From the IMG/VR virus record IMGVR_UViG_2740892235_000006: a stretch of DNA of 8,446 nucleotides, one strand, 5' to 3'. The notes below the pieces were generated by a model. The model saw only the letters and a program-made list of their open reading frames with translations, was not told where the DNA came from and did not search any database. The first letter of the stretch is position 1. Every line of letters begins with the position of its first letter. Source of the DNA: a virus. Its lineage: Duplodnaviria > Heunggongvirae > Uroviricota > Caudoviricetes. The position numbers and the translations under genes are program-made. This document shows positions 2,882 to 8,446 of this stretch, piece by piece.

Positions 2882-3574
2882 TTAATTGTGTCGCTTAAGG
2901 GTTTGTGACTGACTGATTAAGACCTTCCCAAAGACCATAAACCGGTGTTCGTTTTCGCTGGTAATTCCCCATTCACGGTAAATCTGGTTATCAGAAATCA
3001 CCAGTAGTTTGTCAGGTATCATTTGCAGTCGTTTGACATAAATTTTATCATCAAAACCAAACACATAGATACCATCCCCATCAAACTGATTGATACTGAT
3101 ATCAACGAAGATGAGATCTCCTGGCTCAATGGTTGGACACATACTGTCCCCACGAACGTTGATAACTTTAATGTGATTGGCTGGTCGTCCTCCAAACATC
3201 GATACAGCATTATCAGTTATGTATTCAATGGCATGAATCACATCAATGACATCACCGCCCTGGATAAGGCCATTTCCCGCACTGGCACTGACATCCAGCA
3301 TTTCAATACGGAATACATCCTTCACCTGCGCAACATCCTCACCAGTACTGTTTTTACATACAGTATTACTTTTGAAGTCTGAGGTAAAGAGATCTGCAAT
3401 ATCAACACCTAAGCTCCTGGCAATATTACTCAGGGCTTGTTCAGTGAATTGTTTCTGCTTACCTGTTTCCAGGCGTGAGATATTCGCCGCATCCACTCCT
3501 ATTGCTTCAGCGAGATCGGCGATTTTCATGTTCTTCGCCTGGCGAAGTTGTCTGACTCGATTTCCTATGTTCAT
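2882..3574 (-). CDS. CI-type phage repressor, 230 aa: N-terminal XRE-family helix-turn-helix plus C-terminal S24 (LexA-like) autopeptidase
   Basis: N-terminus MNIGNRVRQLRQAKNMKIADLAEAIGVDAANISRLETGK is a typical HTH. C-terminal half carries the S24 signature GDSM (catalytic Ser) and a downstream YVKRL (Lys). It is divergent from the cro-like gene. No SD precedes the ATG. Confidence 0.9.
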   Translation of the reverse strand: MNIGNRVRQLRQAKNMKIADLAEAIGVDAANISRLETGKQKQFTEQALSNIARSLGVDIADLFTSDFKSNTVCKNSTGEDVAQVKDVFRIEMLDVSASAGNGLIQGGDVIDVIHAIEYITDNAVSMFGGRPANHIKVINVRGDSMCPTIEPGDLIFVDISINQFDGDGIYVFGFDDKIYVKRLQMIPDKLLVISDNQIYREWGITSENEHRFMVFGKVLISQSQTLKRHN

Positions 3575-3671: not shown

Positions 3672-3932
3672 ATGCAATCACCATTACGAAATGTGCGTAA
3701 GGCGCACGGATTTACTTTGCAGCATGTTGCTGCGGGTGTTCAGGTTAATCCAGCGACGCTGAGTCGTATTGAGAGACTGGAACAAATTCCATCTATCGAT
3801 CTGGCAGAGCGTCTGGCCAATTTTTTTAAGGGAGAAATCAGCGAAATGCAGATTCTCTATCCTGCTCGCTTTCAATCTAGTCAAAACCGGAATGAGTTAA
3901 AACCACAGGAAAAGGAGGTAAGCCGTGGGTAA
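3672..3932 (+). CDS. Cro-like XRE-family helix-turn-helix regulator, 86 aa
   Basis: First gene of the rightward operon, divergent from the repressor. HTH-like segment FTLQHVAAGVQVNPATLSRIERLE. SD GGAGG 4 nt upstream of the ATG. Its 3' end overlaps the next gene by 8 nt. Confidence 0.8.
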   Translation: MQSPLRNVRKAHGFTLQHVAAGVQVNPATLSRIERLEQIPSIDLAERLANFFKGEISEMQILYPARFQSSQNRNELKPQEKEVSRG

Positions 3933-4476
3933 GCATCACTGGAAAGTGGAAAAACAGCCTGAGTGGTACGTGAAAGCGGTCAGAAAAACTATCGCGGCGT
4001 TGCCGGGTGGTTACGCTGAAGCAGCTGAGTGGCTGGATGTAACAGAGAACGCTTTATTCAATCGCCTTCGTGCCGATGGCGATCAGATTTTCCCGCTGGG
4101 ATGGGCAATGATTTTACAGCGCGCGGCTGGCACTCACTACATTGCGGATGCTGTCGCACAGTCTGCTGATGGGGTGTTTGTATCGCTTCCTGACATTGAG
4201 GAAGTAGAGAACGCCGATATAAACCAGCGCCTGCTGGAAGTCATCGAACAGATCGGGAGTTACTCAAAGCAGATTCGTTCGGCAATCGAAGATGGGGTAG
4301 TGGAGCCACACGAGCAGACAGCAATGAATGATGAGTTGTATCTGTCAATTTCGAAGCTCCAGGAGCATGCGGCACTGGTCTACAAAATTTTCTGCGCTCC
4401 AGAAAAGAGTGACGCCCGCGAGTGTGCAGCTCCGGGCGTCGTGGCGTTTTGTGTCTGTGGAGAAACTAACGCATGA
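3925..4476 (+). CDS. CII-like phage regulatory protein (resembles the phage 186 CII / CP76 type), 183 aa, GTG start
   Basis: Strong SD AAGGAGG 6 nt upstream of GTG 3925. Position is immediately after cro. Segment ALFNRLRADGDQIFPLGWAMILQRAAGTHYIADAVAQ resembles the 186-CII-type family from memory. Confidence 0.65.
   Translation: MGKHHWKVEKQPEWYVKAVRKTIAALPGGYAEAAEWLDVTENALFNRLRADGDQIFPLGWAMILQRAAGTHYIADAVAQSADGVFVSLPDIEEVENADINQRLLEVIEQIGSYSKQIRSAIEDGVVEPHEQTAMNDELYLSISKLQEHAALVYKIFCAPEKSDARECAAPGVVAFCVCGETNA
4409..4457. terminator. GC-rich hairpin with pyrimidine/U-rich flanks on both strands inside the 3' end of the CII-like gene; candidate bidirectional terminator
   Basis: Stem gacgcccg (4411-4418) and cgggcgtc (4433-4440), extendable by 3 bp inside the loop. 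Minus-strand RNA continues ACUCUUUUCUG. Plus-strand RNA continues GGCGUUUUGUGUCU. Confidence 0.4.
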
Positions 4477-5636
4477 ACAGTTTAACGGCAAATAACCGTT
4501 TGTCGCAACAGCTGGTGGTCAGTGTCGCTGCACACCTGTTGTTACGGCATGAATGCAGATTACCAAATCACCTGGCTGTAAGTAACCACAGAGAACTTTA
4601 CCTGACTGTGGGGGGCGAGTTGTGCAGGAACTTAACCGCTGGTTTCGTGACGGAAGAGGACTTTATGTTCATGTTATTCGTTGGGAGCCAGAAACACAGC
4701 GCGTTATCTATCTTCGCAAAGACTACCCGCATGAGTGCTTTAGTCCTTTGTGGAAATTCAGGCGTGATTTTGTTGAGTGTGAAGGACCAGCAGCATATTG
4801 ATTCTGCAATTCCGGGACGTTACACTGTACCGGCACCTTATAAAGCGGGTGCCGGGATTGGCGTCCTGAAATTGATTACTGAGCATAACCGCGCTCATGC
4901 GGTTTTTTCGTGTCATGAGCATTGCTACGCCCAAATTATGGTGGGGCGTACAGGGCCGACTTCGGTCGGGCCGGGTTCGGTAGTCTCCGGTAACGCCAAC
5001 CCTGTACGTCTCACCACCTCTGTGATTGGCGTCCCATGTGGTGAGTTTTCTAAAAAACTGACTACCGGGGCTGTCACTATGACTACTCTCCCAACCCTCT
5101 CTCAACCTGAAATTGCCATCGTTGATGGTCAGGCTGTTACATCTTCTTTGGCTGTTGCTGACTTCTTCTCTAAACGTCATGACGATGTTCTGAAAAAGAT
5201 CCGCATTTTGGATTGTTCTCCAGAGTTTTGTGCCCGCAATTTTGCGGAGACATCAATTTTGGTACGCCAGCCCAACGGCGGTACTCGCAAACTTCCCTGC
5301 TATCAAATCACCCGCGACGGTTTTGCGTTTCTTGCCATGGGCTTCACTGGTAAACGTGCTGCCCGGTTCAAAGAGGCATACATCAACGCCTTTAACCTGA
5401 TGGAGAAACAGCTTTCAAAGCCCGCTGTACCGAGCGACGTTGCACATAACGCCAGCGTTCTCTGTTCCTACATTTCATCAATTCATCAGGTCTGGCTGCA
5501 GCAGCTTTATCCTATGTTGGCAAAAGCCGAATCTCCGCTGGCTGTTAGCTTATATGACTATATTAATGATGCTTCGGCGCTGGCCTGCCTCATAAATTTG
5601 TCGCTGAACCCTTCAGAGGCAAGGGGGCGCAAATGA
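4473..5636 (+). CDS. 387-aa ORF with a C-terminal Rha-family phage regulatory domain (residues about 203-387) and an N-terminal 200 aa of uncertain coding status
   Basis: ATG 4473 overlaps the CII-like stop (ATGA). The segment from M203 (ATG 5079), MTTLPTLSQPEIAIVDGQAVTSSLAVADFFSKRHDDVLKKIRIL...YQITRDGFAFLAMGFTGKRAARFKEAYINAFNLMEKQL, matches the Rha signature (FGKRHDNVLRDI-like, MGFTG). The upstream 600 nt is open in frame but rich in rare codons (tta, ggg, aga, agg). A G6 run at 4610-4615 connects to a second open frame. Confidence 0.6.
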   Translation: MNSLTANNRLSQQLVVSVAAHLLLRHECRLPNHLAVSNHRELYLTVGGELCRNLTAGFVTEEDFMFMLFVGSQKHSALSIFAKTTRMSALVLCGNSGVILLSVKDQQHIDSAIPGRYTVPAPYKAGAGIGVLKLITEHNRAHAVFSCHEHCYAQIMVGRTGPTSVGPGSVVSGNANPVRLTTSVIGVPCGEFSKKLTTGAVTMTTLPTLSQPEIAIVDGQAVTSSLAVADFFSKRHDDVLKKIRILDCSPEFCARNFAETSILVRQPNGGTRKLPCYQITRDGFAFLAMGFTGKRAARFKEAYINAFNLMEKQLSKPAVPSDVAHNASVLCSYISSIHQVWLQQLYPMLAKAESPLAVSLYDYINDASALACLINLSLNPSEARGRK

Positions 5637-5857
5637 TCCGGAATATTTTCAAACGTTTTACCAATCAGACTTTCCGTTGTCCTCGTCCGGGTCAGTGGTA
5701 CACCACGCCTGCAGGGCATGTTCTACGTGTTAGCCTGGTTGACCGTGAATGTCAGAAGGTGATTTGTGAACCGCTGGGCCGTAATTACCGCGTCAGTATG
5801 CCGCTTATAGCCTTTCGCTCCGGAAAAAACATGAAGCATCTCGGAGGTGCAGCATGA
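5633..5857 (+). CDS. Hypothetical small phage protein, 74 aa
   Basis: ATGA overlaps at both ends (with the Rha-domain ORF upstream and the replication gene downstream). G-rich SD-like stretch upstream. Protein MIRNIFKRFTNQTFRCPRPGQWYTTPAGHVLRVSLVDRECQKVICEPLGRNYRVSMPLIAFRSGKN; no family recognised. Confidence 0.5.
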   Translation: MIRNIFKRFTNQTFRCPRPGQWYTTPAGHVLRVSLVDRECQKVICEPLGRNYRVSMPLIAFRSGKNMKHLGGAA

Positions 5858-6672
5858 GTATGGAGCTGATGGTTAAAGCGATGAAAATTCGAGTGGGTAA
5901 TCCATTGCGAAAACTGGTTCTGATCAAGCTGGCTGATAATGCCAGCGATCAGGGTGAGTGCTGGCCCAGCTACCAGCATATTGCTGACCAGTGCGAGATT
6001 AGCAAACGTTCTGTGATGAATCATATTGCGGCCCTTTGTGAGTCCGGGCTGGTAAAAAAAGTCACCCGGAAAGGTGAAAAAGGTAACTCAAGTAATATCT
6101 ATCTCCTTCATCTTGATGGTGCAGGAGATTCACTAGGGGGTAGTGCAAATAATTCACTATCTGGTGCAGCAAATTCACCAGGTAGTGCAGGAGTTGCACC
6201 AGGGGGTAGTGCAGGAGATTCACCCAGAACCAGTCACTCTTTTGAACCAGTCAAAGAACCAGTCAATGAACCAATAGCTGTTGGTGCATCTGCTGATGAG
6301 TCTGTGCGAGTTCGTTCAAACCGACCGGAATACTCTCCGGAGTTTGAGCAGGCATGGCTGGCATATCCCAAACGTGCTGGTGGCAATTCAAAATCTGCAG
6401 CCTTCAAAGCCTGGAAAGCCCGTTTGAATGAGGGGGTAAACCCCGAAACCATGCTGGAAGGTGTGAAACGCTACGCGGGCTGGGTATCTGCGATGGGTAA
6501 CAGCGGCACACAATTTGTGAAACAGGCTGTCACGTTCTTTGGTCCGGATCGTCATTTCGAAGAATCCTGGGAAGTTCCTGCGGTATCTGTAGCCGGACGT
6601 GAGGACCCGTACTTCAAAGCCAGTTACGACAACGTGGACTACAGCCAGATCCCGGCAGGATTCAGGGGGTGA
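5854..6672 (+). CDS. Replication initiation protein (lambda O-like organiser): N-terminal winged-helix/HTH domain, central Gly/Ser/Ala-rich linker, C-terminal domain; 272 aa
   Basis: SD GGAGG 6 nt upstream. N-terminus MSMELMVKAMKIRVGNPLRKLVLIKLADNASDQGECWPSYQHIADQCEISKRSVMNHIAALCESGLVKK looks like the HTH of phage replication proteins. Position after cII and Rha is typical. The linker is encoded by direct repeats. Confidence 0.7.
   Translation: MSMELMVKAMKIRVGNPLRKLVLIKLADNASDQGECWPSYQHIADQCEISKRSVMNHIAALCESGLVKKVTRKGEKGNSSNIYLLHLDGAGDSLGGSANNSLSGAANSPGSAGVAPGGSAGDSPRTSHSFEPVKEPVNEPIAVGASADESVRVRSNRPEYSPEFEQAWLAYPKRAGGNSKSAAFKAWKARLNEGVNPETMLEGVKRYAGWVSAMGNSGTQFVKQAVTFFGPDRHFEESWEVPAVSVAGREDPYFKASYDNVDYSQIPAGFRG
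6118..6275. repeat. Iteron-like direct repeats inside the O-like gene, preceded by an AT-rich stretch (6081-6117); candidate replication origin
   Basis: Five imperfect 16-19-bp repeats with consensus GGT(AGT)GCAGGAGATTCAC starting at 6118, 6139, 6163, 6181 and 6205, then GAACCAGTCA three times (6228-6237, 6244-6253, 6257-6266) plus a partial fourth (gaaccaa, 6269-6275). Confidence 0.4.
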
Positions 6673-6674
6673 TC

Positions 6675-6767
6675 ATGAGTCTTTTGAATGAAGTTCAGAA
6701 ATTCATTGAAGCCCATCCGGGCTGTACTTCCGGAGACATTGCGGATGCTTTTTACGTGGGGGCTTAA
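6675..6767 (+). CDS. 30-aa ORF (MSLLNEVQKFIEAHPGCTSGDIADAFYVGA), possibly the remnant of a longer gene cut at a module junction
   Basis: Starts 2 nt after the O-like stop and its TAA overlaps the methyltransferase ATG. Its last 15 nt are shared with the different gene found upstream of the second methyltransferase copy. Confidence 0.3.
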   Translation: MSLLNEVQKFIEAHPGCTSGDIADAFYVGA

Positions 6768-8047
6768 TGAGTAATAAATATTGCCAGGCGCTGGTAGAAC
6801 TGCGGAACAAACCAGCCCATGAACTGAAGGAAGTGGGCGATCAGTGGCGCACGCCGGACAACATTTTCTGGGGAATTAACACCTTGTTTGGTCCGTTTGT
6901 TCTGGATCTGTTCACTGACGGTGATAACGCCAAATGTGCCGCGTATTACACGGCGGAAGACAACGCGCTGGCGCATGACTGGTCAGAACGTCTTGCGGAG
7001 CTTAAAGGTGCTGCCTTTGGTAATCCCCCATACAGCCGCGCCAGTCAGCATGAGGGGCAATACATCACCGGCATGCGTTACATCATGAAGCATGCCAGTG
7101 CCATGCGTGATAAAGGCGGGCGCTATGTTTTCCTGATTAAAGCTGCCACCAGCGAAGTGTGGTGGCCGGAAGATGCAGATCATATTGCTTTTATTCGCGG
7201 GCGTATTGGTTTTGAACTGCCTGTCTGGTTTATCCCGAAAGACGAGAAGCAGGTACCGACAGGCGCTTTCTTCGCTGGTGCTATTGCTGTTTTCGACAAG
7301 ACCTGGAAGGGACCGGCAATCAGCTACATCGGGCGCGATGAACTTGANNNNNNNNNNCAGAACGAAATAATTTTCTGGCGCGTCGTGAACGGTGTTTACG
7401 GAAAAGCAGCAAGCGGGCTGCATCAGGTGAAGAGTGGTATCTGTCAGGGAATTACGTGGGGGCTTAATGAGTAATAAATATTGCCAGGCGCTGGTGGAAC
7501 TACGGAACAAACCAGCCCATGAACTGAAGGAAGTGGGCGATCAGTGGCGCACGCCGGATAACATTTTCTGGGGAATTAACACCCTGTTTGGCCCGTTTGT
7601 TCTGGATCTGTTCACTGATGGTGATAACGCCAAATGTGCTGCGTATTACACGGCGGAAGACAACGCGCTGGCGCATGACTGGTCAGAACGTCTTGTGGAG
7701 CTTAAAGGTGCTGCCTTTGGTAATCCCCCATACAGCCGCGCCAGTCAGCATGAGGGGCAATACATCACTGGCATGCGTTACATCATGAAGCATGCCAGTG
7801 CCATGCGTGATAAGGGCGGGCGCTATGTTTTCCTGATCAAAGCTGCCACCAGCGAAGTGTGGTGGCCGGAAGATGCAGATCATATTGCTTTTATTCGCGG
7901 GCGTATTGGTTTTGAACTGCCTGCCTGGTTTATCCCGAAAGACGAGAAGCAGGTGCCGACAGGAGCGTTCTTCGCTGGTGCTATTGCTGTTTTCGACAAG
8001 ACCTGGAAGGGACCGGCAATCAGCTACATCGGGCGCGATGAACTTGA
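6752..8047. repeat. Two near-identical methyltransferase tiles (6752-7347 and 7452-8047) with different upstream contexts, separated by the N10 gap at 7348-7357
   Basis: Identity begins at the shared string ttacgtgggggcttaatgagtaataaata; sequence further upstream differs completely between the two copies. Confidence 0.85.
6767..7347 (+). CDS. Phage Dam-type N6-adenine DNA methyltransferase, copy 1, truncated at the N10 gap 7348-7357
   Basis: NPPY catalytic motif (GNPPYS) encoded at 7022-7033. Reads MSNKYCQALVELRNKPAHELKEVGDQWRTPDNIFWGINTLFGPFVLDLFTDGDNAKCAAYY. Typical nin-region position after the replication gene. Confidence 0.8.
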
Positions 8048-8120: not shown

Positions 8121-8446
8121 CGACGTTAACTCAATGCCAGCAGCAGGTGCTGGATATGCTGATTTCTTACCAGCAAGAACGTGGCTTCCCGCCAACTAAT
8201 CAGGAGGTGGCAACCATGCTGGGATACCGTTCAGTGAATGCAGCGGTGGAGCATCTTCGCGCACTGGAGAAAAAAGGCGTCATCACGATAAANNNNNNNN
8301 NNTCAGAAAGAGCGTGGCTTTCCGCCAACCAATCAGGAGGTGGCAACCATGCTGGGATACCGTTCGGTGAATGCAGCGGTGGAGCATCTTCGCGCACTGG
8401 AGAAAAAAGGCGTCATCACGATAAAGCGTGGCGTGGCCCGGGGGAT
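8117..8446 (+). CDS. LexA N-terminal DNA-binding-domain-like (winged helix) protein, partial; runs off the window end and crosses the N10 gap at 8293-8302
   Basis: ATG 8117 overlaps the methyltransferase stop (ATGA). [59 protein letters not shown] aligns by eye to the LexA N-terminus ([58 protein letters not shown]). Segment 8303-8425 repeats 8170-8292 with substitutions and extends to ...KRGVARG. Confidence 0.65.

Follow-up and report, generated by a model that had tools for sequence, protein, structure and literature searches.

We analysed an 8,446-nucleotide (nt) stretch of viral DNA (IMG/VR record IMGVR_UViG_2740892235_000006; herein, the window), and focused on an open reading frame (ORF) of 387 codons at 4473-5636, whose Rha-family domain is found only near its C-terminal end. 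Probably, this interval is an antisense-RNA immunity module of a lambdoid Escherichia coli prophage and not a single protein gene. Inside the ORF we found a separate gene in another frame, which encodes a DUF4222 protein, two RNA genes of the IsrK/SeqA and C4/CI types, and a Rha-family gene with its own start codon. The ORF is thus composite, as the initial annotation of this DNA had proposed. The positions and translations from which that proposal was built were also correct: a run of six G in the frame of the long ORF (hereafter, frame 0), a second open frame from 4586, and an ATG at 5079.

The RNA genes and the nested Rha gene

The two RNA genes and their pairing sites lie between the DUF4222 gene and the Rha gene. 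The features of this part of the ORF are as follows:

4798-4826, + strand: putative isrK promoter, TTGATT-17 nt-TACACT, predicted from 8/12 consensus positions
4833-4909, + strand: IsrK/SeqA-like small RNA (Rfam RF01394)
4858-4864, + strand: C4 target b1 inside isrK, complementary to b'
4874-4884, + strand: C4 target a1 inside isrK, complementary to a'
4887-4904, + strand: isrK intrinsic terminator, a stem plus T run, from a terminator scan
4934-5021, + strand: C4/CI-type antisense RNA (Rfam RF01695)
4938-4940, + strand: ATG within the 5' stem of C4; shares the reading frame of the Rha gene and is homologous to the first orf45 AUG of Gifsy-1
4975-4986, + strand: a' loop of C4, a 12-nt hairpin loop
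4993-4999, + strand: b' single-stranded stretch of C4
5026-5032, + strand: downstream C4 target b2, complementary to b'
5060-5069, + strand: downstream C4 target a2, overlapping the Shine-Dalgarno-like GGGG at 5067-5070
5079-5636, + strand: nested Rha-family candidate antirepressor gene, 185 amino acids; its stop overlaps the next ATG (ATGA at 5633)

Both RNA genes matched their Rfam covariance models above the cut-off: isrK with 59.3 bits (cut-off 50) and C4 with 82.3 bits (cut-off 45), the latter over its full length (model positions 1-87). The Rfam model of the C4 a1/b1 targets gave a sub-threshold match at 4820-4872. The fold of isrK alone is weak (z score -1.7). The minimum-free-energy fold of C4 is the structure of the Rfam model (-47.7 kcal/mol, z -6.0), and its stems are maintained by compensatory change. 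When 34 distinct C4 sequences, P4 CI among them, were compared, 99.7% of the cells in the stems were paired and 14 of the 27 pairs had changed on both sides; slid controls gave at most 5 such pairs, and none of 500 shuffles reached the observed value. Helix 3 is uninformative in this comparison, because it was fixed by the search pattern with which the modules were collected.

The loop of C4 and both of its targets change together. Approximately 56 combinations of the a' and b' loops were found, each with its cognate a1, b1, a2 and b2 at fixed positions (+88 and +118 to +122 for the downstream sites). The longest complementary runs average 9.4 and 10.8 nt between cognate partners, against about 6.5 nt between non-cognate ones. 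In most alleles a2 runs into GGAGG; in the window it abuts the GGGG at 5067-5070, 8 nt before ATG 5079. The putative isrK promoter lies 6 nt before the first Rfam position of isrK and is conserved across alleles.

Two further observations concern the arrangement of these RNAs. The transcript from isrK to the start codon is predicted to fold with -103.6 kcal/mol (z -4.7), and in this fold b2 pairs with a2 and the Shine-Dalgarno sequence in a local hairpin (5022-5085), so that C4 may not be required to mask the start at 5079. In addition, tandem arrays of two or three isrK/C4 modules, with different loop alleles and with downstream genes of their own, occur in some viral contigs. Joined by ATGA overlaps, these modules are spaced at 656 nt (L103, L104, L116, L152, L166) or at about 848 nt (L010, L058).

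ATG 5079 is codon 203 of the long ORF, and, judging by the sequence, it is the start of a canonical Rha gene, with the domain placed as in ordinary Rha and Ant families. Pfam Phage_pRha (PF09669) matched with 92.5 bits (cut-off 29.9) over residues 223-312 of the long ORF. Counted from ATG 5079 these are residues 21-110, so the domain that had seemed misplaced at the C-terminus is in fact close to the N-terminus of a protein with its own start. Rha-like and anti-repressor families of PHROG matched as well, with the PHROG 518 domain at profile positions 17-125. The ATG is present in 80/80 close relatives, and substitutions relative to ST64B are distributed over the codon positions as 29/23/69, a coding signature. 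The nested product would act as an antirepressor. In several loci (L094, L165, L130, L167, L187) the frame through C4 runs on for 416 codons, maybe into a different, much larger downstream gene, and L094 is without the usual internal ATG after a2.

The DUF4222 gene and the G6 run

Upstream of the RNA genes, the long ORF overlaps a protein gene read in another frame:

4610-4615, + strand: G6 run, read as a Shine-Dalgarno-like element for DUF4222, with GTG 4622 following after 6 nt
4622-4801, + strand: stand-alone DUF4222 gene, 59 amino acids, GTG start, +2 frame relative to the long ORF (Pfam, PHROG, tblastn, substitution pattern)

In frame 0 the G6 run reads G GGG GGC (4610-4616). The second frame is open from 4586, after TAA 4583-4585, to TGA 4799-4801, and its translation contains ...RVVQELNRWFRDGRGLY.... 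The initial annotation had described this translation as the more protein-like one, and it turned out to be a match to Pfam DUF4222 (PF13973; E 1.6e-13, 50.4 bits, cut-off 27), covered end to end by PHROG 1343 (profile positions 1-57 of 59). Using tblastn, DUF4222 was found in phages of Klebsiella, Providencia, Hafnia, Serratia, Yersinia and Morganella at 38-73% identity, and the matches in these six other genera always begin at query residue 1-4. Annotated stand-alone DUF4222 genes of 60-69 amino acids, abutting a replication gene, are present in Serratia, Providencia, Morganella, Yersinia and Fraca phages; homologues in distant phages are hence separate genes.

The substitution pattern tells the same for the window. 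Among close relatives, 10 of the 16 variable sites in 4622-4801 are third codon positions of DUF4222 (binomial P 0.016), and the differences per DUF4222 codon position are 3/3/14 relative to ST64B and 8/6/29 relative to Stx1_499. The G6 run itself is unchanged in 76/76 homologous viral loci. Taken together, the family matches, the third-position substitutions in its own frame and the invariant G6 run establish DUF4222 as an independent gene. On the sequence, the G run is best read as the Shine-Dalgarno element of this gene: the aligned bases in the e14 element of E. coli K-12 are AAGGAGA, followed 7 nt on by the TTG start of the DUF4222 ORF. With an independent gene and a ribosome-binding site at the G run, the sequence can be explained without an indel or a frameshift. 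Of the suggestion of a gene of about 109 amino acids followed by a separate Rha gene, it holds that the frame-2 ORF is a real gene and that Rha has a start of its own; DUF4222 starts at GTG 4622. The stop of DUF4222 (TGA) overlaps an in-frame ATT of frame 0 (ATTGA, 4797-4801), mimicking the ATGA couplings of the operon.

The long frame and its alternative explanations

The window covers the region of a lambdoid E. coli prophage that holds its immunity and early-right genes, and the long ORF stands in the following gene order:

2882-3574, - strand: cI-like repressor
3672-3932, + strand: cro-like gene
3925-4476, + strand: ymfL / CII (CP76)
4473-5636, + strand: long frame-0 ORF in focus, 387 codons, from the ORF listing
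5633-5857, + strand: small ORF
5854-6672, + strand: replication gene
from 6767, + strand: Dam methylase

The long ORF, the small ORF and the replication gene all start in an ATGA overlap with the preceding stop. In the case of the long ORF, ATG 4473 overlaps the TGA of ymfL, and GGAG is found at 4459-4462. Sequence related to the interval occurs in more than 3000 of 5426 complete E. coli genomes. Recombination among loci has shuffled three units independently of one another, namely the segment 4473-4801, the RNA module and the Rha gene, and in several loci the DNA upstream of about 4800 is unrelated.

The long ORF is composed of a YmfM-like stretch, an Ash stretch and the Rha gene, and its frame is kept free of stops. 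From -105 to +141 around the ATG in the C4 5' stem (window 4938), frame 0 was stop-free in 109 out of 117 distinct modules, and the other two frames in 19 and 2. The counts of stop triplets by frame were 0/30/3 in 40 distinct a'-loop variants, 6/75/159 in the upstream flanks and 7/51/81 in the downstream flanks. The same holds over DUF4222, whose +1 frame is frame 0: it is open in all 39 distinct DUF4222 genes that are linked to the module, while openness is expected in about 6% by synonymous resampling and in 7.8% by real genes of these loci over the same length. Mid-gene stops interrupt this frame in three of the five stand-alone DUF4222 genes (Serratia, Fraca and Morganella phages). Relative to ST64B, 4476-4621 contains a 6-nt indel that preserves frame 0. 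In most other contexts, a Shine-Dalgarno sequence and an ATG proper to frame 0 are found some 53 codons upstream of the C4 ATG; this upstream ATG is often part of an ATGA overlap, and translation from it would give M..HIDSAIPGRYTV....

We tentatively suggest that frame 0 is translated across DUF4222, which we regard as possible rather than probable. If so, 180 nt would be read in two frames, with DUF4222 selected for its peptide and frame 0 only for openness, so that ribosomes could reach and override the RNA immunity module.

Several points weigh against an immunity module that is overridden in this way. Upstream of 5079, frame 0 is without third-position bias, with substitutions of 7/13/13 in 4476-4621 and 17/24/23 in 4802-5078, as opposed to 47/25/98 in ymfL and the pattern given above for Rha. 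Since the frame is open yet without a codon signature, selection seems to act on its openness, and not on the peptide it encodes. The case for translation from 4473 is comparative, and such translation over 180 nt of a gene that is selected for its protein in another frame would be unusual. The window type is without a Shine-Dalgarno sequence and ATG just upstream of 'HIDSAIPGRY', and is instead open back to ATG 4473. The probabilities attached to stop avoidance are not independent, because the lineages share ancestry. The modules were collected with a pattern that fixed 18 bases of C4. This pattern also fixed ATG 4938 in the scanned loci; the counterpart of this ATG is present independently of the pattern in P4 and Gifsy-1. 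Finally, a consensus promoter scan did not flag the putative isrK promoter with its 8/12 matches.

An alternative that we consider rather unlikely, and that shares the small features with the reading above, is that only DUF4222, IsrK, C4 and the 185-amino-acid Rha protein are expressed. The upstream 202 codons of frame 0 would then never be translated, and the long ORF would be an annotation artefact, open by chance or through constraint from the RNAs and DUF4222. This would account for the missing codon signature, and it agrees with the lack of peptide conservation between the window and K-12 types, with the inconsistent calls of the Prokaryotic Genome Annotation Pipeline (PGAP) on near-identical DNA, and with an ATG 5079 that has its own Shine-Dalgarno sequence and yields a canonical Rha architecture. 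What it leaves unexplained is that stop avoidance is specific to frame 0, even in the hypervariable loops and targets, that the frame is provided with a proper Shine-Dalgarno sequence and ATG in other contexts, and that no linked DUF4222 gene has a stop in its +1 frame, whereas stand-alone ones are interrupted there. Moreover, the homologous frame is translated elsewhere: translation has been demonstrated for Gifsy-1 orf45, and the account of P4 contained in PMC10111431 reports it for eta.

The public records themselves vary. PGAP and phage records call the long ORF a Rha or antirepressor protein of 383-387 amino acids. Near-identical DNA, with two substitutions of which neither is a stop, is annotated differently in RefSeq (L001 4074-5237 and L002 1723-2737): one genome carries a 387-amino-acid Rha, and the other a 321-amino-acid Rha plus a 'partial' DUF4222 pseudogene, with the RNA genes annotated in neither. 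Only phage F039 (L006) has isrK and C4 annotated. RM14516, for which PGAP gives the 321-amino-acid Rha, was considered as a natural variant with a broken frame 0 and was rejected; it differs by two non-stop substitutions only, and the apparent break is therefore annotation noise.

It is improbable that the 387-amino-acid product is a true multidomain protein, in which the YmfM-like and Ash parts are functional domains and the RNA matches are secondary. Searched separately, frame 2 gave DUF4222 and frame 0 gave Phage_pRha together with Phage_ASH (PF10554; residues 117-212, 41.9 bits, cut-off 26), and PHROG 821/995 profiles also cover the Ash stretch. A multidomain protein would fit these profiles, the conserved length of the ORF in ST64B, mEp460 and many E. 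coli genomes, and the K-12 protein YmfM, a frame-0 homologue of the first part that is reported to inhibit cell division. It would not fit substitutions that are spread evenly over the codon positions, nor the fact that the peptide varies most where it is encoded by the RNA loops and targets, whose changes are coupled through base pairing. The conserved peptide motif, in turn, coincides with promoter-like hexamers, and unrelated DNA replaces the first 110 codons in L010, L044, L058 and L059. Thus, of the earlier idea of a real fusion with an unusual Rha architecture, one part remains, in that frame 0 is kept open as over the nested genes of P4 eta; the other part fails, as the first 202 codons do not evolve as a protein domain.

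The Phage_ASH family can be viewed from the RNA side as well. Its most conserved peptide (IDSAIPGRYTV) is the frame-0 translation of the TTGATT-17-TACACT hexamers (window 4797-4830), and the remaining profile covers the two RNA genes. Phage_ASH would thus be in large part a conceptual translation of RNA genes and a promoter.

The initial annotation had placed the junction at the G6 run, and the two explanations of this kind fare worse still. A programmed -1 frameshift on G GGG GGC would fuse DUF4222 to the initial 47 codons of frame 0, with a product of about 109 amino acids. The heptamer is formally X XXY YYZ in frame 0, the -1 frame is that of DUF4222 and the run is invariant. We nevertheless hold such slippage to be very improbable. 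No slippery heptamer was found at the G6 position in other lineages (the K-12 type has AAGGAGA, and the Stx1 type is without such a run); homologous lineages have AAGGAG and TTG or a separate ATG instead, and DUF4222 homologues stand alone, matching from residue 1-4. The 49 codons upstream of the run are not conserved and carry no coding signature, with substitutions by codon position of 6/8/4 in close relatives and 7/13/13 in the comparison above, and no periodicity. Downstream, nt 4617-4700 gave no notable structure when folded with nested base pairs (-22.6 kcal/mol, z -1.3). In addition, the A-site tRNA for GGC re-pairs poorly on GGG.

A one-nucleotide sequencing or assembly error that split one gene in the homopolymer, a kind of sequence that is error-prone in some sequencing chemistries, has a negligible probability, given that three complete genomes, one of them O91:H21 FWSEC0008, match the 1301-nt interval around the run (nt 4400-5700) at 100% identity, that G6 is the same in 76/76 viral contigs, and that both frames are explained without an indel.

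The window as a whole seems to be no single natural sequence, but a composite of overlapping fragments. It contains eight runs of exactly 10 N (624-633, 781-790, 1190-1199, 1281-1290, 1597-1606, 1967-1976, 7348-7357, 8293-8302), and between these runs the same prophage region recurs in overlapping, nearly duplicated blocks with 96-100% identity, e.g., 6752-7347 and 7452-8047. The N10 joins and duplicated blocks are confined to the window outside the focal region, which is inside one continuous 5370-nt block with 99.87% identity to a complete E. coli genome. A match to mir-875 at 6141-6201 was far under its cut-off and was disregarded.

Known systems and the proposed switch

The layout of the locus is already known from P4, P1 and Gifsy-1: it shares the architecture of P4 eta/kil and the RNA logic of P1 immI and Gifsy-1. 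In P4, the eta ORF (8168-8812) contains matches to isrK (8615-8692) and to C4/CI (8420-8507) and ends in the 65-amino-acid kil. In both cases, a long ORF with isrK/SeqA-type and C4/CI-type elements is in frame with a nested downstream gene that has its own start, Phage_ASH matches over the RNA-bearing stretch (in eta with 4.5e-23, 82.2 bits), and the long ORF starts directly next to the gene before it. The start context of kil, 'EAAIMAT', recurs in sister alleles of the window module, ...GGAGGCTGCCATCATGGC.... The two differ in their genomic setting, a lambdoid prophage here and a satellite in P4, and in the long ORF, which here extends about 110 codons further upstream, over a DUF4222 gene in another frame. 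They also differ in the nested product, which is a Rha-type antirepressor of 185 amino acids here and Kil (65 amino acids) in P4. As the nested product has Phage_pRha and is not Kil, the locus shares an architecture with eta/kil and is not its orthologue.

According to the summary of Forti et al. (1999) given in PMC10111431, eta of P4 harbours the sequence of CI, and read-through leads to translation of Kil, a truncated form. The same summary states that full-length Eta is made only from transcripts of an upstream promoter and in coupling with the gene before it, and that translation of Eta prevents termination. We infer an eta-like read-through by translation of the long frame in the window, where stop-codon avoidance and ATGA coupling are the visible marks of it.

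The immI region of P1/P7 (c4 - icd - ant) is the original paradigm of c4/ant regulation (Citron and Schuster 1990, as cited in PMC7313666). There, as in the window, the C4 loops a' and b' are complementary to upstream a1/b1 and downstream a2/b2, the downstream site covers a ribosome-binding site, the output is an antirepressor, and alleles of loop and target define specificity. The window differs in that no icd-like gene is present between C4 and the antirepressor gene, the antirepressor is of the Rha type, and the RNAs are inside an open reading frame.

The isrK - orf45 (STnc1160) - anrP region of Gifsy-1 is matched by the Rfam models of isrK and C4, arranged and spaced as in the window. Its first orf45 AUG (+107 of isrK) is the same ATG of the C4 5' stem as window 4938, and the antirepressor gene follows, with a2 at its Shine-Dalgarno sequence. 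Gifsy-1 has two cistrons, whereas in the window the frame continues into the Rha gene: the a' hairpin of Gifsy-1 is shorter, and orf45 therefore ends at a TGA that overlaps the ATG of anrP. The module is located after antQ in Gifsy-1 and in the early-right operon here. Translation of orf45 was shown and is needed for antirepressor expression; its nucleotide sequence is conserved and its amino-acid sequence is not. The processed RNA STnc1160 has been likened to P4 CI.

The e14 element of K-12 resembles the upstream part of the locus. It has the same ymfL, the same ATGA-coupled start of frame 0 (MNSLT...) and the same DUF4222 ORF in the other frame, with its own Shine-Dalgarno sequence (AAGGAG) and TTG start. 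Frame 0 of e14 terminates close to where DUF4222 ends, giving YmfM of 112 amino acids, and the replication gene comes next, without an RNA module or a Rha gene. As in window 4473-4801, ymfM of e14 (SfiC; L088 3323-3681) thus overlaps a conserved DUF4222 ORF in the other frame. YmfM is the reported inhibitor of cell division mentioned above. The published ymfM work cloned the annotated ORF, and its constructs did not separate the two frames; the embedded DUF4222 ORF might account for some or all of the inhibition of cell division ascribed to ymfM (SfiC).

Herein, we propose a switch that is modelled on the P1 and P4 homologues. In the lysogen, the promoter near 4798-4826 would drive IsrK, up to the intrinsic terminator, and, by read-through, C4. 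The single-stranded stretches of C4 would pair with b2 and a2 across the ribosome-binding site of ATG 5079, and may also pair with b1 and a1 within IsrK. Pairing would block translation of the antirepressor and favour termination of the untranslated RNA, presumably with the involvement of Rho. Upon infection or induction, ribosomes on early-operon transcripts would pass from ymfL into frame 0 and through the terminator and the C4 fold. Translation of frame 0 would then override the RNA immunity, such that the Rha-domain protein and the downstream replication genes are expressed. IsrK may also open AUG 4938 in trans. Under this scheme, three in-frame products are possible, of 387, 232 and 185 amino acids.

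Public annotation, including RefSeq, describes the locus as a single 387-amino-acid 'Rha family phage regulatory protein', and omits the two RNA genes and often DUF4222. Read correctly, it identifies the switch that would control the antirepressor in many Shiga toxin (Stx)-converting and other lambdoid prophages, and the large repertoire of loop and target alleles probably sets which prophages silence each other's antirepressors. The principle of P4, an ORF that is open only so that ribosomes can override an RNA switch, would be extended to lambdoid early operons. The least explored aspect is the overlap with DUF4222, which bears on ymfM/SfiC of K-12.

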